NCBI GenBank assembly: GCA_963650805.1
Contig: CAVJMG010000004.1
Span: forward strand, 44,155-108,154
Direction of reading: 5' to 3'
Source: an uncultured Bacteroidales bacterium
GTDB taxonomy: Bacteria; Bacillota_I; Bacilli_A; RFN20; CAG-826
DNA: 64,000 bases
In this document: piece by piece, positions 18,338 to 52,798 of the stretch
Layout: the number at the start of each line of letters is the position of its first letter
Numbering within the stretch: the first letter of the stretch is position 1
Notes under the pieces: generated by a model
Database searches by the model: none
What the model saw: the letters and a program-made list of their open reading frames with translations, nothing else
Told to the model about the DNA's origin: nothing
Translations under genes and position numbers: made by a program

Positions 18338-21300
18338 TCAGTTATTAGCTTTGAAGGCGTATGAGCCGACGCTGGTGATTTCCTGGTCGTTGATGGTGAT
18401 GACGTAATCGCTGTCTTCGGGAAGCGAGATGACTTCGACGCTGAATTCGACGGGGCAATGGATGGTGACTACGTAGGTCTTGTTAAGCTCATCGTAGACA
18501 TACTCGACCGATGCGGAAGAATCTGAAACCGTCATTTTGAATTCGCTGTAGGTGGATTCGACGATGATGGGCGTTGGCCCTTCCCAATCTTCCGAAGCGG
18601 TTTTAGACCCCGTTCCTTCCGCTTTGATGGAAACGTCCCCATCCGAAGTGAAGGTCACGAGGCCGTCGCTTAAAGTTGCGTCTCCGCTTTCTTTGGACCA
18701 AGCCACGTCGTCCGAGGGGAAATAGAGCTGAAGCTCATCTCCTTCTTTTGCTCCGGTTATCGTCCAAGTGCAGGAATAGGCCATGCTTAAGGTCAAATTG
18801 GTCAAGGAGAAGGTCTGAACGGTTTTTCTTTCCATCGTGACGATGGTCGGGGAATCATAAACCCCCTCGATTGCTTTCCCATCTTCCCCTTTGACCTCGG
18901 TATAGGCGTCTTTGTACACAACTTGGAGGTCTTCCGAGCTGCTGGAAGTTACTGTCGAGGAAGTTCCCGAAGTCGAAATCGCGAGTTCGAGCTCTTTGCT
19001 TCTAGGGGCTAGAATCGCGATTGAAGCGGAAGCCCCTCCCTTGACCTCTGCAGTTTTGGACAAATCAGCGATGAAATCAATCCCTTTGGGATAATTCTCG
19101 GTGTAGGATGAAGAAACAATCTTCTCGTCGATTGTTACGGAGTCGTAATTTGCTGCACCTGTTCCAATGTCTAGGTAGAGCAAATAGGACCCTTGTTTGC
19201 CGGGAACCGAGCCCAAGGCATATTCCCCGGGATTTACGGGGATTTCAAAATAATAGAGACAATAAGTTGTGATTTTCGCATCTGTTGAAATCCAGGAAAC
19301 GTCGAAAATCATGTGATTCGAATCACTTCCGGACGGCACGCTTCCATCGTAAGAATAGAGATAGGGATTCTCTTTCTTATCATCGCCTAAATTCGCGTAT
19401 ATCTTGCTGATCGATTTAATTTCGGTGATGTTCTGGTTTTCGTCTCTGACGATTTCTTGGAGGCTGAAGAAAGAGTTGTTAGTTCCGTAGGAGCTGTTAA
19501 CGTAGTAGGTGGCGCCAAAGAAGGTGACATAGCCCGATGTGGCGAGATTAAAGCCGATTGAATCCTCGGGGACCGGATAGTTGTAATAAACGGACCCTTT
19601 TTGAGTTGGCTTTTCGCTTGTTTCCTTGTTCAAATATTTTTTAAGGTCTGCTTCATACCGTTTTTCCGCCGCTTCGTCATAAACCACGGCTTTTCCGATT
19701 TTGGTTAGATGGTCCGTTGATATTGCGGCGTTCATGAAATGAAGCCCGTATAACGGGGTCGAAGATTTAACGCTCGTGTTGCTGTAACTTCCAAACATCG
19801 TGTATTGAAGATTTTTCCTCGCTGAGTCGTAGCGCGAGAAGATTGAAGAATCTACGGGTTTGGCGGTCCAACCGGAGATGGTGGTGCTGCTCGCGGTGGA
19901 ATTGTTGTATTGGTCCTTAATTTTGGTCCATCCGTTATCGGAATAAGTCCCGTCGTTCGCCTTGGTGGTTGAACGTGTGAGAACTTGCAATTTTGAGCTG
20001 CTGTAACTACTCCAACTCGATCCCCCGAAAGAGGTATGCAGTTGGCTTATATTGTAATATTCGGCTACACGGATGTCGCCCGCGTAGTCGCTTCCGTTGA
20101 CATAATTTGCACCCCCAACCAAATATCCCGTATTCATGTCTGAGACGCCCGTTATGTTGGCCTTCGTTTTGGGGTCATCATAACTGTAGGCTAACGGGAA
20201 ATAGGTCGGATTTACTGTTGCGGTCGCCTTTTCACTTGAGGTAGAAACGGAGGCGAGGCCGGTATCTCCGGTTTTTTCAAACGTTAAATTGGAAGTATAG
20301 TCACCGCCATCGACTTTGCTGACGATGAACTGATCGCGCTGATTGGGGAGGTTTTGGTAGGTTCCGTTTTTCGTTTTGTAACTGACTTGGAATTCGCCAT
20401 TGGAATAGACTAAATAAGAAGTACAACCATCGCCGTCAAAATTTTCACGGAGCATGTATCCCGTCCCTGTTCCGTCGCTTGATGCGTTATCCATGTAAAA
20501 ACGCTTTGAGGTGGAATTGCCATGGCCTCCGTCATACTGTGTCACCCGAGGCAACTGCGTCCAATTTGTGCTGGTTATTCCCAAATAAATAGAAGACGAA
20601 TCGACTGGGTAATATGCGTTGTTAGTTGAATTATATCCCCAAGCATAACTTGAGTAAGTCGCTTTCGCTAATGCCGTCGGAGCTGTTTCTGCGGTTCCTG
20701 AATAGCCCACGTACATATTCGCGGTTACGTCTTTGATGGTAAGGCAAGATGACGTTGCTGCCGCTACCAGTTGCCAAGAGGAGTCATAATCGAGGTAATA
20801 GTTAAGACTGGTGCTATAAGGGATATAAAGATTCCCTTTATCGGAATCATAAGTCCATGTCGCCATTCCTGAGGTTGTGGTAAGCAATAGATTAAAAGAT
20901 GTGCCGTAGGCAAGATAATAAATGGTTCCATTGATGCTGGTGGAAACTTGGCCGCTCGCACCCGCCTCCGGGACGAACCACGAAACTGCGTCGCTCTCGG
21001 ATGCCGTATAGGTTACTGAATTAGATGAACCCACGGTGAGATAAACGCCGTTTTTGCTTATCTTGGACGTATAAGCGTATTGGTTTTTGGTCACGGTTTT
21101 TGAATAATCGGAACTTGCTCCGGTGTATGAGCCGTAAATATATACATAGCTATCGTTGCTTAGGCTTTGATAAGGCAAGCCGTATGATGCAATTACATTG
21201 CCATCCCCGTCGGTTCTTTCACCGTTTCTATAAGAGTAATCGCCCCTAGTTAGTCGCGTACTACCATAAACTTGGTTGTACGGCTCGCTTTTTACCCCTT

Positions 21301-22309
21301 CCGGAGAAACGTCGACTGACTCCGAGGTGACGTATGTGACGTCTTTCGAAATAGTGTTGCTTTTCAACTCACTCTTCAAATCGGTGTACATCTGCTTCAT
21401 GTTCACCGATCCGCCCCAATTGGTGGAGCCGTGCTCCGTGTTGGGGTTATCGATTTGTGGCATGGAGATGGTTTGGTCGCTAACGTCGAGCTTAGAGCGA
21501 TAATCCTCTGTGGCGTAGCCCACCAAAGAGTATTCGGAGATGTGTTTAACCCCGACAACGTCGGTGATGGTAGTGGCGTTCTCCTTCGTGAGAATAGAAG
21601 CGGATTTGATACCGACGCCTTTGATTTCTCCGTTGACGTATCCCGCGGCCAAACCGATGAGGGTTGAAGAGCTTGAAGACACGACGTCGAGGCCATCGAA
21701 ACCCAAGTTGAGGATTTGATTGGCGGAGGTGTCGTAGGTGTAGTTATTAACCGTGCCGCTGTCGTTGAGACATCCGACGACGCCGAAAAACCCGACGATT
21801 TCGGATTGCTTTAGGATTCCCGAAGAATATTCGGCACCCTTAGGGGGCTCAGCCCCCTTGAGGCTTTCTTCGTTATTCGTAATCTTTAGATTCGATATGG
21901 TTTTGCCCGCCCCGTCGAAATTCCCGACGAAGGGGTATTGCTTTGTGCCGGCTGGAGGGAGGGTGACTCCAGTCATGTCCAAGTCCGAGGTAAGCTTGAA
22001 ATAAGTCTGCTTAATCGCGGTCTTATCCTCGTTTGGGGTGTTGAAATAGCCAAGGTCCTGCAGCCAATTGAAGTAATAAAGCTGCTTCGGGTTGTCAATT
22101 TCAAAGGGCTTTTCCTTGCTCCCGTCCCCCCCATTGAAATAAGAGCCGTGGGCCGCTCCGGAGAGGCCTTCGAGCTTGGCGGTTGTTCTGGCTTTGGCAA
22201 ACCAAGCGAAGGAAGGCAGCGCCAAAGAAGCCGAAAGCACAATAAAAGAAATGCCCGAGAGCAGGGCGGTCTTCCTCTTTTTGTCTTTTAAAATCTCTCT
22301 GAGTTTCAT
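18338..22309 (-). CDS. Very large (1323 aa) secreted/surface protein, Ser/Thr/Tyr/Asn-rich, likely a beta-helix adhesin-like protein.
   Basis: Signal anchor ALLSGISFIVLSASLALPSFA. N-terminal GSYFNGGDGSKEKPFEI and GNFDGAGKTISNL resemble right-handed beta-helix caps. No catalytic motifs recognised. Confidence 0.6.
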   Translation of the reverse strand: MKLREILKDKKRKTALLSGISFIVLSASLALPSFAWFAKARTTAKLEGLSGAAHGSYFNGGDGSKEKPFEIDNPKQLYYFNWLQDLGYFNTPNEDKTAIKQTYFKLTSDLDMTGVTLPPAGTKQYPFVGNFDGAGKTISNLKITNNEESLKGAEPPKGAEYSSGILKQSEIVGFFGVVGCLNDSGTVNNYTYDTSANQILNLGFDGLDVVSSSSSTLIGLAAGYVNGEIKGVGIKSASILTKENATTITDVVGVKHISEYSLVGYATEDYRSKLDVSDQTISMPQIDNPNTEHGSTNWGGSVNMKQMYTDLKSELKSNTISKDVTYVTSESVDVSPEGVKSEPYNQVYGSTRLTRGDYSYRNGERTDGDGNVIASYGLPYQSLSNDSYVYIYGSYTGASSDYSKTVTKNQYAYTSKISKNGVYLTVGSSNSVTYTASESDAVSWFVPEAGASGQVSTSINGTIYYLAYGTSFNLLLTTTSGMATWTYDSDKGNLYIPYSTSLNYYLDYDSSWQLVAAATSSCLTIKDVTANMYVGYSGTAETAPTALAKATYSSYAWGYNSTNNAYYPVDSSSIYLGITSTNWTQLPRVTQYDGGHGNSTSKRFYMDNASSDGTGTGYMLRENFDGDGCTSYLVYSNGEFQVSYKTKNGTYQNLPNQRDQFIVSKVDGGDYTSNLTFEKTGDTGLASVSTSSEKATATVNPTYFPLAYSYDDPKTKANITGVSDMNTGYLVGGANYVNGSDYAGDIRVAEYYNISQLHTSFGGSSWSSYSSSKLQVLTRSTTKANDGTYSDNGWTKIKDQYNNSTASSTTISGWTAKPVDSSIFSRYDSARKNLQYTMFGSYSNTSVKSSTPLYGLHFMNAAISTDHLTKIGKAVVYDEAAEKRYEADLKKYLNKETSEKPTQKGSVYYNYPVPEDSIGFNLATSGYVTFFGATYYVNSSYGTNNSFFSLQEIVRDENQNITEIKSISKIYANLGDDKKENPYLYSYDGSVPSGSDSNHMIFDVSWISTDAKITTYCLYYFEIPVNPGEYALGSVPGKQGSYLLYLDIGTGAANYDSVTIDEKIVSSSYTENYPKGIDFIADLSKTAEVKGGASASIAILAPRSKELELAISTSGTSSTVTSSSSEDLQVVYKDAYTEVKGEDGKAIEGVYDSPTIVTMERKTVQTFSLTNLTLSMAYSCTWTITGAKEGDELQLYFPSDDVAWSKESGDATLSDGLVTFTSDGDVSIKAEGTGSKTASEDWEGPTPIIVESTYSEFKMTVSDSSASVEYVYDELNKTYVVTIHCPVEFSVEVISLPEDSDYVITINDQEITSVGSYAFKANN

Positions 22310-22642
22310 GCTGACTACCGTTTAATGGCAACCAGGCTATCTCAAGGAGACCCTTTGGCTTTGCGTCGCCAAGTTGCCTTGGCTTTGCTTTTATCTTTTG
22401 CTATTGTAGGACAACTAAAAAGGTTTTGAAAGCGAAAAGCGTTATTGTTGACGGAAAAATTGCATAAATTGTTATTTCAACTTCTTGATTTTTCTTTAGA
22501 TTGATCCCGCATGTTGTTTTGTCAACCGTCGTTTGCAATCCATAATGCGGTTCCTTCGCATGTTTTTATATCTAACTTTTTCTTCTTGGGGTCATCTCCG
22601 TAAGGTATAATCCATCAGACAAACAAAGGAGAATGACAGATA

Positions 22643-25675: not shown

Positions 25676-25866
25676 GTTTGTCTCTAGGCCCTTGCGCATA
25701 AAAGCGGGGGCTTTTTCTTATGGCTTTAGGTCGCTTGCTTTTTTACAAAGCGCTCCTTGAAAGACGCGGGTTTAATAGTGTCATTATTCATTGCGTCAAA
25801 AAACTCTTTTATTTTTAGGGCTAAATAAAACTTAAATGCCGAAGATATCGAAAGTCTTTGCAAAAA

Positions 25867-25950
25867 AACTGCTCACTGAAAAGACAAAATAATGCTCACT
25901 GAAAAGTCGAAATAATGCTCATTGAAATGGCAAAATGTTGCTCATTTATA
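25867..25950 (+). promoter_or_regulatory. Four direct repeats of about 23 bp (AATAATGCTCACTGAAAAGNCNA type) ending at the TATAAT -10 of the downstream ATPase gene.
   Basis: TGCTCACTGAAAAG at about 25870 and 25893. TGCTCATTGAAATG at about 25916. TGCTCATTT at about 25939. Period 23 bp. Confidence 0.4.
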
Positions 25951-25978
25951 ATGGCTATTCATTTTTATTTTAGTTAAA

Positions 25979-27289
25979 ATGAGTTTGAGGAAACTGAAAA
26001 TGGGCTTATGGAAAAACGGCACTCCCTACAAGAAAAGGGTAATCGACCAAACGATAGAGGAATATTTAAGCGTCGCTGGGGCCGTATGCGTTGAGGGACC
26101 GAAGTGGTGCGGCAAAACTTTCACGTCCATTTTCCATTCAAAAAGTCGTTTTATGGTTGGGGATCCCGAGAGGGGCTTCTCCAATAGAGAACTCGCCAAA
26201 TTGGATCCGAATTTCGTGCTGCAGGGCGATGCCCCGAGGACGATTGATGAATGGCAAGAAGTGCCCTCCCTTTGGGATGCAGTTAGATTTGAGGTGGACA
26301 AGAGAGGCCAAAAGGGTCAATTCATCCTCACCGGTTCTTCGACACCCATGAAGAAAGGCGTTCTCCATAGCGGCGCTGGCAGAATCGTTCGGCTCAGAAT
26401 GAATACGATGTCCTTGTACGAAAGCGGAGATTCCACGGGGCAAGTTTCTCTCAAAGAACTCTGCGATAACCGCTTATCAAACCAAATGATTGGGGAGAAG
26501 TCTATTTTGGATTTGGCGACTTTCATCGTTCGTGGCGGTTGGCCTCAAAATATCGATGTCCCTTCAGCAAAATGCCACTTGATGCCAAAGGCCTATATTG
26601 AGACGCTTATTCACGAGGATATTCAGAAATTAGATGATTCAGTGGAGTATGATGAGCGCAAGTTTGAACTGCTCCTTAAATCTTTGGCGAGGAACGAATC
26701 AACGACTGCTTACGATGCGACGTTGCTTAACGACGTCATTCAAAACGACAGCGAGTCCATAGGCAGGAACACCATCGTTAAGTATTTGGACGTTATGAAA
26801 CGTTTATTCATATTGAATAATCAAGAGCCATACGCCCCTTCTCTTCGTTCGTCTTTGAGGGTAAAGCAAAATGAGAAAAGGCATTTCTCCGATCCGGCTA
26901 TGGCTTGCGCGCTATTGAACATTACCCCAAGCAAATTGTTGGGGGATATGCATACCTTCGGATTTTTGTTTGAGGCTCTTGTTGAGCGCGATTTGGCCGT
27001 TTACGCACAAGCCTTCGGCGGAAAGCTGTTCCATTATCAAGATTACAAAGACAATGAAATCGACGCTGTCATCGAGCTTGAAGATGGCCGTTGGTGCGGC
27101 ATAGAAATAAAATTAGGCTCAAATCAAATCGAAGAGGCCGCGGCTAATTTGAAAAGAATCAACGCCTCTTTGATAGCAAGCGGAAATGAAGGAGCTCAAT
27201 CCTTAATTGTCATCGTAGGCTTGGGGAACGCCGCTTACAAAAGAGAAGACGGCGTCCTCGTCGTTCCAATCTGCGGTTTAAAGGATTGA
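25979..27289 (+). CDS. AAA+ ATPase with a C-terminal DUF4143-like domain (AAA_14 + DUF4143 architecture).
   Basis: Walker A GPKWCGKT. Walker B FILTGSS. Clear paralog of 42046-43338 (ILFDEWQDAP, TGS, RMNPMSLFE blocks). Confidence 0.75.
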   Translation: MSLRKLKMGLWKNGTPYKKRVIDQTIEEYLSVAGAVCVEGPKWCGKTFTSIFHSKSRFMVGDPERGFSNRELAKLDPNFVLQGDAPRTIDEWQEVPSLWDAVRFEVDKRGQKGQFILTGSSTPMKKGVLHSGAGRIVRLRMNTMSLYESGDSTGQVSLKELCDNRLSNQMIGEKSILDLATFIVRGGWPQNIDVPSAKCHLMPKAYIETLIHEDIQKLDDSVEYDERKFELLLKSLARNESTTAYDATLLNDVIQNDSESIGRNTIVKYLDVMKRLFILNNQEPYAPSLRSSLRVKQNEKRHFSDPAMACALLNITPSKLLGDMHTFGFLFEALVERDLAVYAQAFGGKLFHYQDYKDNEIDAVIELEDGRWCGIEIKLGSNQIEEAAANLKRINASLIASGNEGAQSLIVIVGLGNAAYKREDGVLVVPICGLKD

Positions 27290-30799: not shown

Positions 30800-32353
30800 T
30801 CAGGCGATGCCGGTTGCGTATTTGACGATGTAGATGACCACGAAGGCGGCAGCGCAGCAAGCGACGGCGGTGTCTTCTTTCTTGAAGCGGTGAGCGCAGA
30901 GGGTCATCAAGGTGTAGGCGATGAAGCCCCAAGCGATGCCATCGCTGATGGAATAGGAGATGCACATGACGATGACGGTGAGGAAGCCGCTTCCGACGGC
31001 CACCCAATCGTGCCATTCAAGCTTTTCGAGGTTCCTGAACATGCAAACGCCAACGTAAACCAAGGCAAGCCCGGTGACGGCGCTATTGGAGAAAGCGCTG
31101 AGGGCGGGATAGATGACAAGGCTCAATCCGAAGAGGAGGCCGGTGATGACGGCGGCGAGCCCGGTGCGGGCACCCGCGGCGACGCCGGTGGTGGATTCGA
31201 CGAAGGAAGTGACGGTGGTGGTGCCGCAGATGGAGCCGAAGACGGTGCCGGCGGCATCAACGATCATCGCGGGGCGATCGTCGACGGTGATGTGACCTTC
31301 GTCATCGACCATGCCGGCGCCGGCTTCAACGCCGACGAGGGTTCCGGCGGTGTCGAAGAAGTCAACGAAGAGAAGAGAGAAGGTGAAGGCGTAGGACATC
31401 GGTTGGGCGAAGACGTCGAACCCGAAGAAGGGGGCGCCGAAGAGTTTGCCGAAATTGCCGATGGAAGCGATGGAATACTCCGGATCATAGAAGCCGGAGA
31501 ACCCTTCGACTTTGCAAGAACCGAGGGTTCCGCAGAGGATGGCCATGACGACGATGGCGATGATGACGGCGAACTTGTTGACCCAGAAGCCAAGCTTGGT
31601 CCTTTGGGGCAAGGCGGAAAGCGCTAAGACAACGACGACGCCGAGCAAGCCGAGAAGGACGGGGAGGCTCTTGAAGTTGCCGAGGCCGACCAAGGTGGCG
31701 CTGTTGTCGGCGATGATGCCCATGTTCTGGAAGCCGATGAAGCAGATGAAGAAGCCAATACCCGCGGAAATAGCGAATTTCAGCGACTTCGGAATACGTT
31801 TGACGATCCATCCTCTAAGAGGAGTAATGGAGATGATCAAGAAGAGAATGCCGTCGACCATGACTAAGCACATGGACTGGGCAAAGTTCCAACCCATGCC
31901 GAGCATGACGTTGAAGGCGACGAGGGAGTTAAGGCCAAGTCCAGAGGCTAAGCCAACCGGCAATTTGCCGTAGAATCCCATGAAGATGGTGGTGACGCAG
32001 GCGGAGATGGCGGTGGCGGCGAAGACGGCGGCGCGGACATCGCTCACGCTGGCCCAGTTGTTGCCATAAATGAGGATTTCAATGGTTTCGCCGACCTGCC
32101 TGACGTTGCCTTTGCTTAGAGCGAGAGCGCCGCCAGCCCAGTTGCTAGAAAGCATGTTGGCGTTGAGCGGAAGGATGTAGAACATCGCCAAGAAGATGAC
32201 GAGCCCGCCGATGAGCTCTTTGAGGATTGAGGATCCCCTGGTGGAAATTCCGAAGTAGTTGTCCATCCACTTCCCGAATTTCGTTTTTGGGCTGTGTCCG
32301 CCCGGTTGGTTGCTCTCTGGCGAGGTTTCAACAGCTGAGACTGCTTCTGCCAT
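30800..32353 (-). CDS. NCS2/AzgA-like purine permease (guanine/hypoxanthine/adenine permease, PbuG-like).
   Basis: KELIGGLVIFLAMFYILPLNANML AzgA-type N-terminal block. About 13 TM helices. Sits downstream of a guanine-type riboswitch and upstream of apt. Confidence 0.75.
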   Translation of the reverse strand: MAEAVSAVETSPESNQPGGHSPKTKFGKWMDNYFGISTRGSSILKELIGGLVIFLAMFYILPLNANMLSSNWAGGALALSKGNVRQVGETIEILIYGNNWASVSDVRAAVFAATAISACVTTIFMGFYGKLPVGLASGLGLNSLVAFNVMLGMGWNFAQSMCLVMVDGILFLIISITPLRGWIVKRIPKSLKFAISAGIGFFICFIGFQNMGIIADNSATLVGLGNFKSLPVLLGLLGVVVVLALSALPQRTKLGFWVNKFAVIIAIVVMAILCGTLGSCKVEGFSGFYDPEYSIASIGNFGKLFGAPFFGFDVFAQPMSYAFTFSLLFVDFFDTAGTLVGVEAGAGMVDDEGHITVDDRPAMIVDAAGTVFGSICGTTTVTSFVESTTGVAAGARTGLAAVITGLLFGLSLVIYPALSAFSNSAVTGLALVYVGVCMFRNLEKLEWHDWVAVGSGFLTVIVMCISYSISDGIAWGFIAYTLMTLCAHRFKKEDTAVACCAAAFVVIYIVKYATGIA

Positions 32354-32427: not shown

Positions 32428-32565
32428 CAAAGGAGAAAAACGCAAAAACGAGAGCTGCATTTTGCGACTTGGGCTTCTTTGTTTCCTTTCTTGGAATTCG
32501 TAGTGCCTGACTTTAAGGATCAGGCGTAGAAACTGTCGGACCACATCTCCAACATATACGACCTA
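32428..32565 (-). promoter_or_regulatory. Purine riboswitch, guanine/hypoxanthine type (C discriminator), with a downstream intrinsic terminator as the expression platform.
   Basis: Minus-strand RNA: UCGUA-UAUG-UUGGA(GAUGUGG)UCCGA-CAGUUUCUAC-GCCUGA(UCCUUAAAG)UCAGGC-ACUACGA. P1, P2 and P3 all pair. The J2/3 GUUUCUAC core is present. Terminator GCAAAAUG-N7-CGUUUUUGC plus UUUUU at about 32428-32470. RBS GGAGGA follows. Confidence 0.75.
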
Positions 32566-32701
32566 TCGACGTTAATTAAATATATATAGAAAAAAGGCCC
32601 TATCCACATGAAAGCGGTTTATCGAAGAAATTCCCCTTTTCTTGTTTTTGTTTGCCGGCACCCTTGATAGAATAATGGGCTAGAAAGAAGGTTTAAACAC
32701 C

Positions 32702-33414: not shown

Positions 33415-34785
33415 CTAAATCCTAAACAAATCTTCTAAGGCAAACGTGTGCACGTTATTCGGCTTCGATTCAATTAAATCCGCGGTGAAACCGCTTTTGG
33501 AAAATAGGTAGTATTCTCGCCTCAACTTGCTGGGGAAGACGCTGGCGCTTTCAATGAGATGGTTAAGCATGCTGGAGGAAAATTTAACTTTTCTATATTT
33601 GCATTCCATCACGATCAGCGTTTTTCCATTGTCGGACAACCCGTCGATCTCAACGGGCCTGTTCAAAATCGATTTTTCGACTTTGTAAGGTTTAAACGGT
33701 TTTTAAACGCCGCCTAATGCGCCTTCGGCGTTTAATTCGTCCATAAACATTCGGGAAACGTCTTCAAAGCCGAAACTAATGAAATCTTTAATTTCTTCTT
33801 TTTCCGATTCGAAGACGGCTTCGCCGTTGATTTTTACCGTTTCCTGATTGTCAAAGACGAAAATGTACCAAAACCTAAGCATTGGGTCCCCGATTTCGTA
33901 ATAAACGGTCTTTTGATTGCCTGCGTACGTTTCCCTTCGATCAAGGAGTTCTTGAGATAGCAAAAACGAGATGTATTTGCTTACTTTCGCTGGCTCTTCA
34001 TGGATATAGTCGGCTATCTCCTTAATGGTTCTTTTTCTTTTGGACACCGCGTGCAAAATCGAGTTATAGATATCCTACGTCCTCGTGGAATTGGACAGCA
34101 GCTGATCAGGTAATGTAAAGAAAGCTCCGTAGGGGTTGAACAACAGTTCCTTCACATTCTCTTCAAAGGATTTTCCAAAATCCATCGCCGACAAATAATA
34201 GGGGAAAGAAGACGTCAAAGATAAGAAACGGACTTTGTTCTCCTCGTCGACGGAGGTCAAATATTCAAGGCATTCCTTGTATCCGAGCTTCTTGATCTCC
34301 ATTTCGAAAGTTCTGCGTTTACACAAAGGCGAGTTGTGATTTTGAATTTCGTCTTTTAGCATCGAAACGTCGCTTCCGGATATTAGGAAAAATATATTGG
34401 CCGGAGCTTTATCGATGATGCTTTGAAGAACGGAGGGGAAACTGGGGTCCTGCTTGACAATATAGGGATACTCATCGATGGCGAAAACGAACCTTTGACC
34501 TTATGCTTTTTTTAGCAAAGCGCTTATGGCGGATTCATACGAATCAAAAACGAAAGTATCGGGCAATCCAAGCAAAGGGTTGATTTGGTGGGACAAGGAC
34601 CGCAAATTGCCATATTTGCTATCTTCTTTGGCTTGATAAAACAAACCGTTCTTCCCTTTGAGAAATTCGTTTATCAAATAGGATTTTCCTATTCTTCTTC
34701 GCCCATAAATAACTCCGAATTCCTTCTTTGCCCCGGAATATCTATTGTTTAGTTCCCTAAGCTCCGCTTTTCTGCCAACAAGCAT
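33415..34785 (-). pseudogene. Archaeal-type AAA+ ATPase gene (paralog of 8929-10287) interrupted by three in-frame stop codons (TAA, TAG, TAA) with no frameshift.
   Basis: Track ORFs 34501-34785, 34075-34362, 33703-34056 and 33415-33666 are all in one frame. Walker A GRRRIGKS, IDEYPYI, YYEIGDPMLRFWYIFVF all align colinearly to the intact paralog. Stops at about 34501-34503, 34072-34074 and 33700-33702. Confidence 0.6.
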
Positions 34786-34998
34786 AAAGGCTCCTTTATT
34801 AACCCGAGAGTTATTAACCTTTGAGTTAACAATATTTTATAAGCATTTCGCGACTGCTTCAGGCAAGAGATAGCGATGGCTTCGAAACGATTTAATGGCT
34901 TTGCTCCATTGCAATCTGCGTGTCGATTTGCAAGCTGTTTTGCGGCCTTTTCGATAAAAAAGCCTCGGGAATCCGAGGCGCGTGTTTGCAATCGCCGC

Positions 34999-42045: not shown

Positions 42046-43338
42046 TTAATTTCGCAAGGATCCAATAGGGATGACGATAACGCCGTCTTCACGCCTATAT
42101 CCGTACTCCGTGCCCGTTATTATCAATTTCAAATCCGGTTTCCTTAAAGGGCATTGTTTCTCTTTTTTGTTGTATTCTTTTATCAAGCGTTCAATTTCGC
42201 ACAAATGCTTTGCTCCTTTGTCTACTTCGTATTCTCCTAATTTGAATTCAATTAAAGCATATCGTCCGTCCTCTAGATGAAGTACGGCATCGGCTTCTAA
42301 TCCATACCTATCGTGGTAATAAGAAACGACACCGCCTTTTTCTTGGGAGTATATTTTCAGATCTCTTATGCACAAAGACTCAAACAGGAATCCTAAGGTT
42401 TTGAAGTCTTTGTAAAAATATTCAGGAGATAGACCTAGAGCCGCAACGGCGAGAGAGGGATCCACGAAATTCCTCTTTTTGCCAGTTCTGATATTGGATT
42501 TGCTCCTAATCGCCGGAGACCAGGGCTCGATGTCTTCAGTGATATAGAGCTTCTCGAGCGCGTTTATATAATCGTAGAATGTCGTTTTTGAGATGTCGTA
42601 ATTGCTTTTGACGTCGTCATAGATTGTTTTTGTGCTGCTGAGTGTGCAAATGTTTCTGGCATAAGACAGCAGAATCGTTCTTACCCATGTTGGATTTCTT
42701 GTTTTGTGGTCTAGCTGTGAAACGTCTCTTGAATAGGTTTGCTTAAATAGGTCTTTTGCAATCAACTGCTGTTGGTTTACATTTCCGTCGAAAAGCAAGC
42801 ATCGTGGCCATCCACCTACGCAGATGGCGTTGATGATATCTTCTATGGTCATTTTTGATTTGCATCCGGAAAATGAATTGGGCGAGTCGAATAGTTCCAT
42901 CAAACTGACTTCGCCCGTTGATTTGCCCATTTCGAACAAACTCATTGGGTTCATTCTCACCGTTGCTATTCTTAACGTTCCGGTGTGCGGCGTCGCCACT
43001 TGCGCCGAGGTGGAGCCGGTTAAATAGAATGAGCCAACGTCAGCCGGATTGTCATCACAGTTTTTACGAATTGTGCCCCAGATTTTGGGCGCATCTTGCC
43101 ACTCGTCAAACAAAATAGGTTTTGGGTTTTTCAATAATTGCGACGGGGAAATGGATGCAATAGCGAGGAGATTGTCCCTTTGCTCTTCGTCTTGAAACTC
43201 GATTACGGTTTTCGCCCTTTGTTTTGCCGTTGTTGTTTTGCCGCACCCTTTTGGCCCGAAGATACAAACGGCATTATAGACTTTCGTTATCTCGTCTAAA
43301 GCCTTATCTATTACTCTGTTTTTATATCCGTAAGTCAT
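42046..43338 (-). CDS. AAA+ ATPase with a DUF4143-like C-terminal domain (paralog of 25979-27289).
   Basis: Walker A GPKGCGKT. ILFDEWQDAP. Start set at the MTYGYKNRV ATG (RBS gagg). The track start at 43410 adds 24 residues and runs into the upstream repeats. Confidence 0.75.
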   Translation of the reverse strand: MTYGYKNRVIDKALDEITKVYNAVCIFGPKGCGKTTTAKQRAKTVIEFQDEEQRDNLLAIASISPSQLLKNPKPILFDEWQDAPKIWGTIRKNCDDNPADVGSFYLTGSTSAQVATPHTGTLRIATVRMNPMSLFEMGKSTGEVSLMELFDSPNSFSGCKSKMTIEDIINAICVGGWPRCLLFDGNVNQQQLIAKDLFKQTYSRDVSQLDHKTRNPTWVRTILLSYARNICTLSSTKTIYDDVKSNYDISKTTFYDYINALEKLYITEDIEPWSPAIRSKSNIRTGKKRNFVDPSLAVAALGLSPEYFYKDFKTLGFLFESLCIRDLKIYSQEKGGVVSYYHDRYGLEADAVLHLEDGRYALIEFKLGEYEVDKGAKHLCEIERLIKEYNKKEKQCPLRKPDLKLIITGTEYGYRREDGVIVIPIGSLRN

Positions 43339-43398
43339 ATTTAAGAACCTCAAATCTATTGCTGTCTTCTTTTTCGATGCAGTTAAATAAAATTGCAA

Positions 43399-43472
43399 TA
43401 AAACGGACACTTTCGTTGTAAATAAGTGAAGAACTTCGTGGTAACAAAACGAACACTTTCGTGATGAAATTA
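43399..43472 (-). promoter_or_regulatory. Three direct repeats of about 23-24 bp (ACACTTTCGTTGTAAA / AACTTCGTGGTAAC / ACACTTTCGTGATGAAA) upstream of the DUF4143 ATPase gene.
   Basis: AAAACGGACACTTTCGTTGTAAA and AAAACGAACACTTTCGTGATGAAA are near-identical, with a degenerate copy between them. Confidence 0.35.
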
Positions 43473-43642
43473 TGCGTATTCGTAAAATGCCTTTTGAAGG
43501 TTTACTAACGCCTTGCCTTTTTAATAGCCTCTAGGAGACCAGGCTACTTAAAAAATAGGTTTCAACGAAAGCCCTTGGGCCCAATAAGGAAGCTTTTTTG
43601 AGTAACTTTTCGTTAAAAGAATTTTTATACGTAAAAATCTAA

Positions 43643-43662
43643 CCGAAAAGAAAGCGCTACGA
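43643..43662. promoter_or_regulatory. Second copy of the CCGAAAAGAAAGCGCTACGA motif, about 65 bp upstream of the guaB start.
   Basis: Identical to 35663-35682. Confidence 0.3.
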
Positions 43663-43726
43663 TGAAAAACTGGCCGGAACGATGATATTATTTATTAATA
43701 TAAAATCCTGTTTTCGGAGGGCAAAT

Positions 43727-44860
43727 ATGAAACTGGAAAACGTTCGCCTTGGTCTAACCTACGATGATCTTCTTTTGATTCCGCAAAAATCCGAAGTCGT
43801 GCCTGCGGAGGTGAGCCTCGGCGCTTATTTGACTCCGAAGATTCGCCTCAATGTGCCTATAGTCTCCGCGGCCATGGACACCGTGACAGAGCATGAGCTC
43901 GCCATCGCCCTCGCCCGCGTCGGCGGAATTGGCATGATCCATAAGAACATGTCCATTGAAAGCCAGGCTGAGGAAGTGGCGTTGGTGAAGAAGGCCCCAA
44001 TTGGTGAAAATCCCAATGCAGTCACTGATGAAAGGGGGAGACTCCTTTGCGGCGCGGCGGTTGGTGTCGGCGCCAACACGCTAGAAAGGGTTGAGGCATT
44101 GCTTAAGGCTGGGGCTGACGTCATAACGGTTGATTCCGCCCATGGCCATTCAGCGAACATCCTCAAAGTCGTAAGAATGCTCCGACAAGCTTTTCCCGAA
44201 CTTCAACTTGTCGCGGGCAACATCGTTACCGAAGAGGCCGCTGAAGACTTGATCGAAGCAGGGGCTAACGCTGTCAAGGTTGGCATTGGCCCTGGTTCGA
44301 TTTGCACGACCCGCGTTGTTTCTGGCGTGGGCATGCCTCAAGCTAGCGCGGTGGATGAGGTTGCTTCCTATTGCAAAGGCAAAGGGGTGTGCGTCATCGC
44401 CGATGGCGGGCTTAAATATTCCGGCGATATCGTCAAGGCTCTTGCCTTGGGCGCGGATACCGTTATGCTTGGCTCTCTTTTAGCCGGGACCAAAGAGGCC
44501 CCTGGCGAGGTGAAAGAGGTCAATGGAAAGAAATTCAAAACCTATGTTGGGATGGGCTCGCTCGCGGCTATGAAAAGAGGCTCTGCCGATCGCTATTTCC
44601 AAAAAACAACGACTGCCGTTGAAAAGCTTGTTCCTGAGGGCATCGAAGCCCGCGTGCCGTATTCTGGAACGGTCGAGGAAAACGTCTATCAACTTTGCGG
44701 AGGTCTCCGCAGCGGGATGGGCTATTGTGGCGCTAAGGATTTGATGGCCTTGAGAGAAAATGCCCACTTCGTTCAAATCACCAACGCCGGCTTAAGGGAG
44801 TCCCATCCCCACGATGTCGACATGACGGTGGCTGCCCCGAATTACAAGCACGGCGAATAA
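43727..44860 (+). CDS. guaB: Inosine-5'-monophosphate dehydrogenase lacking the CBS (Bateman) subdomain (377 aa).
   Basis: IMPDH blocks [28 protein letters not shown], catalytic-Cys loop [11 protein letters not shown], and flap GSADRYFQ (which distinguishes IMPDH from GMP reductase). The roughly 120-aa CBS pair is replaced by a short linker [17 protein letters not shown]. Start set at the MKLENV ATG (RBS ggaggg). The track start is 43682. Confidence 0.9.
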
Positions 44861-44876
44861 TCGTTCTTTCAAAATC

Positions 44877-44908
44877 AAAAACGCAGAAATCCTGCGTTTT
44901 TATTTTAT
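44877..44908 (+). terminator. Intrinsic terminator after guaB.
   Basis: AAACGCAG-aaatc-CTGCGTTT followed by TTATTTT. Confidence 0.7.
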
Positions 44909-45000
44909 ATCCAATAAAATAGTGAGGATTTGTGCGGTTTTTGCAATGCTGTTTTGCATTGCTTTCTTTGATGGCCGTGCGCCTTATTGATCTATTATCT

Positions 45001-45092
45001 AAATGACCAAAAATTTTCAAAATGACCAAAACATATGATGAATGACCAAAGACTATAGTAAATGACCAAAAATTATTGATTTGATCAAAAAT
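45001..45092 (+). promoter_or_regulatory. Five iteron-like direct repeats (AATGACCAAA) at 19-20-bp spacing, directly upstream of the ATPase-HTH gene.
   Basis: ATGACCAAA at about 45003, 45022, 45042 and 45062. Degenerate TGATCAAAA at about 45082. Preceded by the inverted repeat GCAATGC-N6-GCATTGC. Confidence 0.5.
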
Positions 45093-45129
45093 CCATTTTA
45101 TATTGTGACTGCTGGAGGAAATAAGAAGA

Positions 45130-46170
45130 ATGGATAACCCTTTCAATGCAACATTTGGCGAATTGCCCCAAAGCTTTGTTTCCCGGGAGAAAGATATCGC
45201 CACGATTCGAACGGCGTTTGGCGGAGACAATCCCGAATCTAAGGTTTATGTTATTTCAGGGGCTAGAGGCAGTGGGAAAACCGTCTTGCTTACAGCGCTA
45301 ACCAACTTGTTTAAAGATGATGGCTATATTTGCGTTGACCTTAATCCTTATGAAGATTTGAACGAACAATTTGCTTCAAAACTGTATGAAGGCGGAAGGC
45401 TGAGGAAGCTATTCCTACACCCCGAGTTTTCCTTTTCTTTTAAAGGCGTCTCCTTAACCGTCAGCGGGGACACCGAGATTAGCAACGTCTACACCTTCAT
45501 AGAAAAAATGCTCTCGTATCTTAAAAAGAAGAAAAAAAGGGTTTTGATAACCATCGATGATGTTTCCAACAACGACTGTGTCAAAAGCTTTATTTTTTCG
45601 TTTCAACAGATGATAAGAAGTGGGTATGACGTATTTCTGCTTGTTACTGGTCTCTATGAAAACGTCTCGGAATTGGAGAGAAACAAAAGCCTTACCTTCT
45701 TCTTGCGGGCGCCAAAGCTCAATCTGGAGCCTTTAAATCTTTTTGAAATCGTCTCGCTTTACAAAAGCCTTCTGAGTTTGGGGGAATCCGACGCCATCAA
45801 AGCCGCGAAATTGACGAAAGGATATGCTTATGCCTACCAGCTCATGGGCTCGCTGATTTATACGAATGGCATTAAGCCCGATATTCTTGACGAATATGAC
45901 AAAAGGCTGATTCAAAACTCTTATTCGTTAACCTGGGAAAAGCTCACCCGCAAAGAAAAAGAATTTCTCTACGCCCTGGCTGATAGCACGTCTCAAAAAG
46001 ACATAACCAAGGCCCTTAATATGAGCAACGGCAATTATCAAACCTACAAGAAAAGGCTCGCTGATAGGGGACTTATCTTGGCCAAGGAAAGGGGCAAAGT
46101 CGATTTTGCTTTACCTAGGTTTAAAGAATTCGTAAGGCTTGAAAAGGCTTTATCCGACGACGAAGAATGA
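45130..46170 (+). CDS. P-loop ATPase with a C-terminal helix-turn-helix (LuxR/wHTH-like). Likely a sequence-specific DNA-binding ATPase.
   Basis: Walker A GARGSGKT. Walker B VLITIDDV. C-terminal LTRKEKEFLYALADSTSQKDITKALNMSNGNYQTYKKRLADRGLI. Confidence 0.6.
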   Translation: MDNPFNATFGELPQSFVSREKDIATIRTAFGGDNPESKVYVISGARGSGKTVLLTALTNLFKDDGYICVDLNPYEDLNEQFASKLYEGGRLRKLFLHPEFSFSFKGVSLTVSGDTEISNVYTFIEKMLSYLKKKKKRVLITIDDVSNNDCVKSFIFSFQQMIRSGYDVFLLVTGLYENVSELERNKSLTFFLRAPKLNLEPLNLFEIVSLYKSLLSLGESDAIKAAKLTKGYAYAYQLMGSLIYTNGIKPDILDEYDKRLIQNSYSLTWEKLTRKEKEFLYALADSTSQKDITKALNMSNGNYQTYKKRLADRGLILAKERGKVDFALPRFKEFVRLEKALSDDEE

Positions 46171-52069: not shown

Positions 52070-52172
52070 AAAGGCTTTCTTGAGTAGATGGTCCGCGTTA
52101 AGTGCTTGGGGATGGGAGGTCGCCCCAAGACGAAGGAACAATCCGCGGTGGGCCATCGCTGCCGCTTGGATA
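52070..52172 (+). promoter_or_regulatory. THF (tetrahydrofolate) riboswitch.
   Basis: GAGUAGAUGGUCCGCGUUAAGUG...GAUGGGAGGUCG...ACGAAGG...CCGCGGUGGGCCAUC...CCGCU matches the THF-I aptamer. Helices covary: GAUGGCC/GGCCAUC and CUUGGGG/CCCCAAG. Downstream CCUCCCC can pair with the RBS GAGGAAAGG. Confidence 0.8.
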
Positions 52173-52201: not shown

Positions 52202-52798
52202 ATGGGGAAATCAGATTCGCTTATTCGACGCATGTGCGTCGACGGCATGCTTGTCGGTTTGTTTGTCGTGCTTACGCTGGTCAATATCAAGATTGGTCCG
52301 ATGATCAGGGTGAGCTTTGGCTCTTTGCCCGTTGTTTTCGCTTCTTTGATTTTCGGCCCCGTTGATGGTCTTATCATCGCTATTCTTGGCGAATTCATTT
52401 CTCAGACCATCAATTATGGTTTTAGCTTGACCACTCCGATTTGGGTTTTGGTTCCTGCGGTAAGAGCGCTCATAATCGGCGGCGTTTCTTCTCTTTTCAA
52501 ACGCAAGGGAGAACTGCTTGAACGGCACCTCGTATTTTATTTTATTACTCTTGTCTTTGCTTCTCTTGCCGTTACGGCGGCGAATACCGGAGCTTCCTTT
52601 TTGGATGCTTATCTTTATCAATACCCCTTCGCTTTCGTTTGGGCCACGAACGCGATTCGGGCCGCTATCTCGATAGTGACATCTATCGTTATTGGCGTTG
52701 TTTGCATCCCCTTGGTCAAGGCCATTGGTTCGTTGGTTTATCCTGGCGATCGTTATCGCTACAAAAAGAACTCTAAAACTGACGATGACAAAAAATAA
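52202..52798 (+). CDS. ECF-transporter S component, folate-family (FolT-like).
   Basis: About 6 TM helices and 198 aa. Directly downstream of the THF riboswitch. Confidence 0.7.
   Translation: MGKSDSLIRRMCVDGMLVGLFVVLTLVNIKIGPMIRVSFGSLPVVFASLIFGPVDGLIIAILGEFISQTINYGFSLTTPIWVLVPAVRALIIGGVSSLFKRKGELLERHLVFYFITLVFASLAVTAANTGASFLDAYLYQYPFAFVWATNAIRAAISIVTSIVIGVVCIPLVKAIGSLVYPGDRYRYKKNSKTDDDKK

Follow-up and report, generated by a model that had tools for sequence, protein, structure and literature searches.

Why does every intact ATPase gene in one stretch of bacterial DNA carry its own set of short repeats directly upstream? The question is raised by 64,000 nucleotides of contig CAVJMG010000004.1 (positions 44,155 to 108,154, forward strand) from an uncultured Bacteroidales bacterium, a stretch that we refer to as the window. 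All four intact ATPase genes in these 64 kb have a private repeat set just upstream, and so does a fragmented fifth copy. We propose that each array is probably the private operator of the ATPase gene that follows it, bound by the winged helix of the encoded protein and controlling that gene's own transcription. An original prediction made from the letters of the window had claimed that repeats precede every intact ATPase gene, and we found all four sets where it had placed them. The genes and their repeats are as follows.

Array 1, 25863-25954, plus strand: four 23-bp units at 25863-25885, 25886-25908, 25909-25931 and 25932-25954, from the sequence and Tandem Repeats Finder (TRF).
Gene 1, 26000-27289, plus strand: AAA_14 ATPase with winged helix and DUF4143 (PD-(D/E)xK) domain, 429 aa, family PDC-S01, from Pfam, PADLOC and a structure model.
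Putative gene-2 operator, 10300-10337, minus strand: ends 5 nt before the GGAGG of the start at 10287.
Gene 2, 8929-10287, minus strand: ATPase_2 with DUF234, 452 aa, family PDC-S27, from Pfam and PADLOC.
Array 3, 43397-43472, minus strand: three 23-bp units, 59-134 nt upstream of the start at 43338.
Gene 3, 42046-43338, minus strand: AAA_14 with DUF4143, 430 aa, family PDC-S01, 36% identical to gene 1.
Array 4, 45000-45092, plus strand: four copies of AATGACCAAA spaced 19-20 bp apart and, after them, a degenerate fifth, TTGATCAAAAA.
Gene 4, 45130-46170, plus strand: ATPase_2/AAA_16 with a C-terminal winged helix, 346 aa, without a nuclease domain.
Pseudogene repeats, 34796-34830, minus strand: GTTAAY at 15-bp spacing, directly upstream of the pseudogene's ribosome-binding site.
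Pseudogene, 33487-34785, minus strand: ATPase_2 with DUF234 family, broken into four open reading frames (ORFs), from tblastn and the ORF list.

Each unit of array 1 consists of AAAT followed by the core ATGCTCAYT, with TGCTCAYT at 25870, 25893, 25916 and 25939, and a TATAAT hexamer at 25947-25952 abuts the fourth core. Array 3 has units that read AyCACGAAAGTGTyCG in gene orientation, the middle one being degenerate. Arrays 1, 4 and 3 are the top three tandem repeats that TRF found in the whole 64 kb, with scores of 105 (period 23, 3.7 copies), 70 and 65 (period 23, 2.8 copies), respectively. A scan of the whole window for phased chains of at least 4 copies returned arrays 1 and 4 only. ATGACCAAA and ACACTTTCG are confined to their own arrays within the window, and TGCTCAYT occurs four times in array 1 and twice elsewhere. 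The repeat cores are private to their own arrays within the window.

The site in front of gene 2 has a different architecture. Three CACTGAA half-sites had been described there as one of the direct-repeat arrays. Their position holds (10303 on the plus strand, 10315 and 10330 on the minus strand), but they form a palindrome, CACTGAA-N5-TTCAGTG, with a further TTCAGTG half-site. Read in the direction of gene 2, two CACTGAA half-sites separated by N8 come first and TTCAGTG comes last. The site is an inverted repeat with an extra half-site and not a direct-repeat array. The same 7-mer is common to two array-1 units (25874 and 25897) and all three gene-2 half-sites (10303-10336), and five of the eight CACTGAA occurrences in the window fall in array 1 or the gene-2 operator. 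This sharing could reflect cross-regulation between PDC-S01 and PDC-S27 paralogues, or chance.

We examined the conservation of the arrays in relatives of genes 1 and 3. The gene-1 family sample comprised 80 fetched loci with relatives at 57-71% identity. Their genome labels span Bacillota, Mollicutes, Bacteroidota, Fibrobacterota, Synergistaceae, Pseudomonadota and Methanobrevibacter, some of these labels belonging to metagenome bins that are possibly contaminated. The gene-3 family sample comprised 80 metagenome loci. Repeats were detected as copies of an 8-mer with at most 1 mismatch and a successive spacing of 17-27 bp. Three to six direct repeats stand just upstream in nearly every gene-1 family locus. 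At least 3 phased copies were detected upstream in 70/78 loci and at least 4 in 47/78; many loci are related, so these and the following locus counts are of non-independent events. The controls for the gene-1 family gave at least 3 copies in 7/71 downstream regions, 1/78 coding regions and 22/390 dinucleotide shuffles, and at least 4 copies in none. For the gene-3 family, at least 3 phased copies were found upstream in 61/73 loci, downstream in 3/68 and within coding sequence in 1/73. Relatives lacking any repeats would have spoken against the original prediction; instead, orthologues and about 150 homologues from unrelated genomes retain an array.

The spacing of the arrays is strict. Exactly 23 bp separates successive copies in 183/200 steps of the gene-1 family and 145/150 steps of the gene-3 family (328/350 together). 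This period is common to both clades despite the 36% identity between genes 1 and 3. In eight loci that are orthologous or nearly so (syntenic orthologues of 88% identity beside the same ABC-transporter gene, together with relatives of 71-80% identity), every unit has an invariant TTGCTCA, while the spacers drift and the copy number is 3 or 4. Elsewhere the core changes and the array stays. We regard this persistence of the array through at least eight different cores as a stronger argument than the locus counts.

Aligning all gene-1 family loci in a common register gave a unit of the form AAAAT-n-[8-9 bp core]-[about 9 bp spacer]. The AAAAT tract is common to all clades of the family. The core carries 1.9-2.0 bits per position within a locus, and the same positions carry 0.4-1.6 bits across loci. 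The clade cores include TTGCTCA, GGGTCA, ATCGGATT, ACCGAAT, TGCTGAAT, TCCCAAGT and CGACTGAAT. Units of the gene-3 family have aCCrCAAAT in front of a core that varies.

The arrays are also phased with the promoter, as read from loci with a good TTGACA/TATAAT pair (41 + 41). Counted from the first base of the -35 box, cores of the gene-1 family start at -13, +10 or +33. These positions put the end of one core immediately ahead of the -35, the following core in the spacer and a third just past the -10. The nearest detected core was in the spacer or at +33 in 27/41 of these loci. Core starts in the gene-3 family are at -19, +4/+5 and +27/+28 relative to the -35. In both families, the repeats run over the core promoter and keep a constant register to its -35 and -10, as in an autoregulatory tandem operator. 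In the window itself, the fifth copy of array 4 lies in the spacer of a promoter-like TTGATT-17-TATATT (45076-45104). The geometry of array and promoter suggests occlusion of RNA polymerase, i.e. repression.

The structure models supply a candidate for the DNA-reading domain. From residue 140 on, the AlphaFold prediction for gene 1 is confident, and it contains a winged helix (helices 219-231, 239-250 and 256-268) with a wing, placed between the ATPase and the PD-(D/E)xK fold. Whether the DUF4143 region models as a winged helix or as a nuclease had been raised with the original prediction, and the model shows both a winged helix and a PD-(D/E)xK core. The alignment columns with high mutual information to motif class cluster at residues 187-265. 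Residues 254-256, at the N-terminal end of the recognition helix, read SRN with the core TGCTCA, SKN with GGGTCA, DVE with ATCGGATT, D.D with ACCGAAT, DRN with TGCTGAAT and SDE with TCCCAAGT. When whole-protein distance was controlled for, the correlation of motif and protein distances peaked at residues 256-260 in the gene-1 family and at 250-255 in the gene-3 family. These two peaks were found independently and fall in the same helix. A changed helix was seen in the gene-4 family, where the ATGATAAA locus, the one distant member with its recognition helix inside the fetched locus, has ITNSK where ATGACCAAA loci have MSNGN.

Repeats are found upstream of more distant relatives as well. PDC-S01 members at 42% and 25-27% identity have arrays with a period of about 23 bp and other cores. 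The distant carriers include plasmids of Collinsella, Spartinivicinus, Rhizobium etli and Agrobacterium; at 25-27% identity, the spacing was counted by eye as 22-23 bp in Rhizobium and Agrobacterium and is about that in Spartinivicinus. Relatives of gene 4 have arrays in 7/7 distinct loci examined, with a spacing of 10 or 20 bp and the cores ATGACCAAA or AGACCAAA at 60-78% identity, ATGATAAA at 45% and AGTACAA at 39%. Directly before the start codon of gene-2 relatives there are 2-3 half-site repeats at about 15 bp or interlocked palindromes. These relatives include plasmid copies from Selenomonas, Cetobacterium, Vescimonas, Rhodothermus, Halorubrum and Haloferax volcanii. Because relatives of genes 4 and 2 also carry repeats, a private repeat operator would be general to these ATPase plus winged-helix genes, with an architecture specific to each family.

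From arrays that are present, conserved, phased, in register with the promoter and covarying with the protein, we infer a mechanism in which the protein would bind its own array cooperatively and thereby regulate itself. The winged-helix domain of the ATPase would read one repeat unit, its recognition helix contacting the clade-specific 8-9 bp core. Several protomers would then line up next to one another, in the DUF4143 clades with one for every 23 bp. That spacing stays strict even among highly divergent members, which suggests that it is constrained by how protomers pack along the DNA. The last units contain the -35 and -10 boxes, so that occupancy of the array would control the gene's own transcription, and the sign of this regulation is most likely repression. 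Array, promoter and gene would make up a self-contained cassette, which would take its expression set-point along from host to host and would be free of cross-talk with paralogues of the same genome. The original prediction had read these ATPases as sequence-specific DNA binders that autoregulate. That reading gains support from the conservation of the arrays, the promoter register, the winged-helix models and the covariation of core and helix.

Several observations weigh against this interpretation. The PDC-S01 members of Thermus and Moraxella have palindromes and not arrays. In the last 50 nt before the gene, Thermus thermophilus pTT27 has the palindrome TGAATGA-CTA-TCATTCA, and Moraxella bovis pMBO-1 has a 44-bp perfect palindrome centred on TATA. 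The sub-clade to which the window belongs has a better-conserved -10 further downstream, and its array ends at or just before the -35; because of this geometry, activation would fit as well. A consensus scan found no sigma-70 promoter for gene 1, and for gene 3 it gave only a weak one, upstream of the array. Since the scan of the window returned no gene-1 site and weak sites elsewhere, the promoter geometry rests mainly on Firmicute homologues. The ATPase half of the gene-1 model is of low confidence, with predicted local distance difference test (pLDDT) values of 30-50. On the side of covariation, the partial correlations are modest (0.2-0.45), windows at residues 212-218 and 277-281 also score, and the signal is confounded by phylogeny, the motif classes largely coinciding with protein clades. 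One locus from a Parasutterella excrementihominis bin (L012, 300-500) encodes a class-A protein (SRNT) without TTGCTCA units and has AACGACAAAA-like repeats instead; it is either an exception to the covariation or a chimeric bin.

We considered what else could maintain such arrays. The alternative that survives best is that the protein does bind its own array, but that the array is mainly a platform for assembly or action, with transcriptional control a by-product. We think this unlikely, though it accounts for several features. AAA+ protomers would assemble there into an ATP-dependent oligomer, one protomer to each 23 bp, and this oligomer would be stored on the array or switched there between a resting and an active nuclease state. 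A 23-bp period held across clades that are 25-36% identical points to a constraint from protein geometry, and 3-6 units per array exceed the need of simple repression. By fold, the proteins resemble the oligomerizing Orc/Cdc6, STAND, TnsC and MuB ATPases, and their NB-ARC/STAND-like character recalls plant NLRs, CED-4 and MalT (8bob). The PD-(D/E)xK catalytic residues E325, D348, D355, E369 and K371 are invariant across both the gene-1 and gene-3 clades. However, the fixed -35/-10 register is directly explained by transcriptional control, the gene-4 family has arrays without a nuclease domain, and a simple palindrome replaces the array in some members.

The two ideas may also be combined. In a speculative version, to which we give no better than an outside chance, 23 bp (about 2.2 helical turns, roughly 60-70 degrees per unit) would be the footprint of an ATP-dependent helical AAA+ oligomer on its own promoter. 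A nuclease effector would rest on the array as its scaffold. Infection or another cue that dislodges or remodels the oligomer would then, in one step, lift the repression of the gene and release or activate the PD-(D/E)xK domain. MalT, with its similar ATPase fold, binds repeated MalT boxes when ATP and inducer are bound. The window proteins differ from MalT in being much smaller and without a sensor repeat domain, and their target, as far as visible, is their own promoter only.

A second alternative takes the ATPase out of the picture as the binder. The repeats would be bound by a host factor, or would be a structural feature of the promoter such as an UP-like A-tract architecture. The invariant AAAAT tract in every unit is compatible with either form. 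However, the core differs between paralogues of one genome, and it tracks the protein clade through phyla with different host factors, Bacillota, Actinomycetota and Pseudomonadota among them. A structural role is further countered by the 23-bp period, which is out of helical phase, so the A-tracts would not add up to a bend. We consider this explanation improbable in both forms, and autoregulation by the encoded protein remains our preferred reading.

Autoregulation also agrees with how the cassettes travel. Neighbouring genes differ between loci, and nucleotide homology between non-syntenic loci covers only the array and the gene, ending at the array and the stop codon. The cassette moves between phyla as array and gene only. 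Because the neighbours differ and the homology covers array and gene alone, no other candidate binder travels with the array. The original prediction would have lost ground had the repeats belonged to a dispersed repetitive family, and we found no such family: the cores are private in the window and the non-syntenic homology stops at the same two points. The possibility that the arrays are transposon ends was rejected, given that the array is one-sided and the homology ends at the array and stop codon.

Horizontal mobility brings up a third alternative, namely that the arrays are replication-origin iterons, a centromere-like site or the end of a mobile element, with the ATPase acting as an initiator, partition or transposition protein. 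The period, the copy number and the position beside a winged-helix AAA+ gene resemble plasmid iterons and the ORB sites of archaeal Orc1/Cdc6. We nevertheless judge it very improbable. The array stands on one side of the gene only, as the downstream control indicates, and overlaps the gene's own promoter. The window ATPase genes lie among chromosomal housekeeping genes, e.g. IMP dehydrogenase (IMPDH), GMP synthase and transporters, with no obvious defence island, and a 64-kb stretch with four of these sites cannot have an origin at each of them. The compared loci showed neither flanking duplications nor terminal repeats.

Comparison with the individual systems, whose logic is similar, sharpens these differences. 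Orc1/Cdc6 has ORB sites beside orc genes, and DnaA has boxes in the dnaA promoter. Against the Orc1/Cdc6 model TIGR02928, the proteins score 16-18 bits, with a cut-off of 181. The window repeats are direct, strictly spaced at 23 bp, one-sided and inside the promoter, whereas ORB sites are inverted and flank an unwinding element. Unlike either orc genes or dnaA, the genes described here occur in several copies per genome. The iterons of plasmid Rep proteins, ParR/parC and the omega heptads consist of 3-10 direct repeats of about 7-22 bp, by or in the promoter of the binder's gene. Operators of this iteron or centromere type are bound cooperatively, with autorepression, and fall into private specificity groups. 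In place of a small Rep or ribbon-helix-helix protein, the proposed binder is an AAA+ ATPase, which has a nuclease domain in some families and lacks it in others; the loci are solitary ones on a chromosome, with no partner gene or replicon function evident. The arrays do not qualify as an iteron-type plasmid origin, given their chromosomal setting, the four arrays in 64 kb, the differing neighbours and the lack of a Rep-family domain by Pfam; unwinding elements were not specifically searched.

The remaining alternative, chance low-complexity sequence or copies of a dispersed repeat family, could appeal to AT-rich intergenic DNA and the weak middle unit of array 3, but it is refuted by the TRF ranking, by shuffles that never reach 4 copies, by the privacy of the cores and by conservation across about 150 homologous loci (70/78 and 61/73).

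We looked for the repeats in viruses as well. A search of 2.9 million viral contigs for three phased TTGCTCA cores returned 3 unrelated tandem repeats without a DUF4143 gene, and the idea of phage decoys is not supported by this search. Scans of viral contigs with genes 2 and 4 found no relatives of either. One viral contig (IMGVR_UViG_3300036953_000078, 7216-7430) carries four perfect 23-bp units, TTTTGCCACAAATTTGCTCATTA, whose GCCACAAAT part resembles the conserved half of the gene-3 family unit. These units are flanked by two other repeat sets, and the contig is without a DUF4143 gene. The site could be a phage origin or a decoy.

The identities that the original prediction gave to the ATPase genes are upheld by Pfam. 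Genes 1 and 3 score 97 and 103 bits for DUF4143 (cut-off 28) and 42 and 50 bits for AAA_14 (cut-off 27). The PADLOC model for PDC-S01 (PDLC04790) matches gene 1 with E 1.9e-58 over residues 11-425 and gene 3 with E 4.3e-48, and G33, P34, K35, G38, K39 and T40 of the Walker A region are invariant. Gene 2 matches the PDC-S27 model (PDLC04984) with E 5e-41 over residues 2-438 and scores above cut-off for ATPase_2 (67 bits) and DUF234 (29.6 bits). The pseudogene is 28% identical to gene 2 over 443 aa by tblastn. Gene 4 has no good match to any PADLOC family. A whole-chain fold match to solved members of the archaeal-type ATPase_2 plus winged-helix group (2qen/2fna type) was found. NCBIfam has no model matching genes 1 and 3, and a sequence search of solved structures with the gene-1 family profile gave a marginal, irrelevant hit only. 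The start that had been given for gene 1 (25979) had to be moved, as homologue length (429 aa) puts it at 26000. Gene 3 starts at 43338 rather than at the GTG at 43410 (homologues are 426-430 aa), and gene 2 probably starts at 10287, behind GGAGG.

[quoted passage not shown] PDC-S01 is described as fourth in frequency among the defence systems of prokaryotes (PMC12988326), and in rumen genomes it is the single locus found most often (PMC13356809). DUF4143 and DUF234 were placed in the PD-(D/E)xK superfamily in 2012, when the function of DUF4143 was unknown and DUF234 had a generic ATPase description (PMC3424549). Genes 1 and 3 share the PDC-S01 architecture and gene 2 that of PDC-S27, an ATPase with a PD-(D/E)xK domain (PMC12988326; PMC3424549); these candidates were published as single genes of unknown mechanism, and gene 4 differs from them in being without a nuclease domain. 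Among open-access papers and bioRxiv preprints, we found none on these arrays, nor any on a winged helix or autoregulation for PDC-S01 or PDC-S27.

The conserved cis-element offers a first concrete handle on the PDC-S01 and PDC-S27 proteins, which we predict to be sequence-specific DNA binders. It names a candidate domain and candidate residues that would set specificity, and it supplies a predicted cognate DNA for each family member. Having their own operators would explain how many paralogues reside in one genome without cross-talk and why a single-gene cassette that has passed from one phylum to another is still expressed at its own level. If the arrays serve autoregulation only, the result would be tidy but conventional. 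If they also store or activate an oligomer, they would bear on how candidate immune proteins sense infection. Were the oligomer-scaffold version true, PDC-S01 and PDC-S27 would have a form of sensing coupled to a cis-element, together with a readable code from recognition helix to core.

The C proteins and C-boxes of restriction-modification systems provide another precedent, in which a mobile defence gene comes with its own autoregulatory operator and co-resident systems are kept from cross-talk by their diverged specificities. The regulator in those systems is a small helix-turn-helix protein, separate from the effector, on a pair of palindromes, whereas the binder proposed here is the effector itself on a phased direct-repeat array.

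Some loci bring two such genes together. In L171 (1-2271), a DUF4143 gene is followed directly by an ATPase plus winged-helix gene, an arrangement reminiscent of genes 3 and 4, which are 1.8 kb apart in the window (42046-46170). A second DUF4143 paralogue lies within a few kb in three other loci (L025, L035 and L041).

The window contains further regulatory elements that are separate from the arrays. A 13-bp tandem repeat found by TRF at 44939-44964 is the stem of a terminator-like hairpin (GCAATGCTGTTTTGCATTGC, then a T run) that sits after the IMPDH gene and is distinct from array 4. Three riboswitches score above the Rfam gathering threshold. A c-di-GMP-I riboswitch (22324-22399, minus strand) stands ahead of a 1323-aa ORF (18338-22309) without a Pfam match, and a tetrahydrofolate (THF) riboswitch (52078-52169, plus strand) stands ahead of an ORF at 52202-52798. 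The third, a purine riboswitch (32481-32581, minus strand), precedes an ORF at 30800-32353; in locus L083 the syntenic counterpart of this ORF, truncated by the locus end, has a Xan_ur_permease domain.

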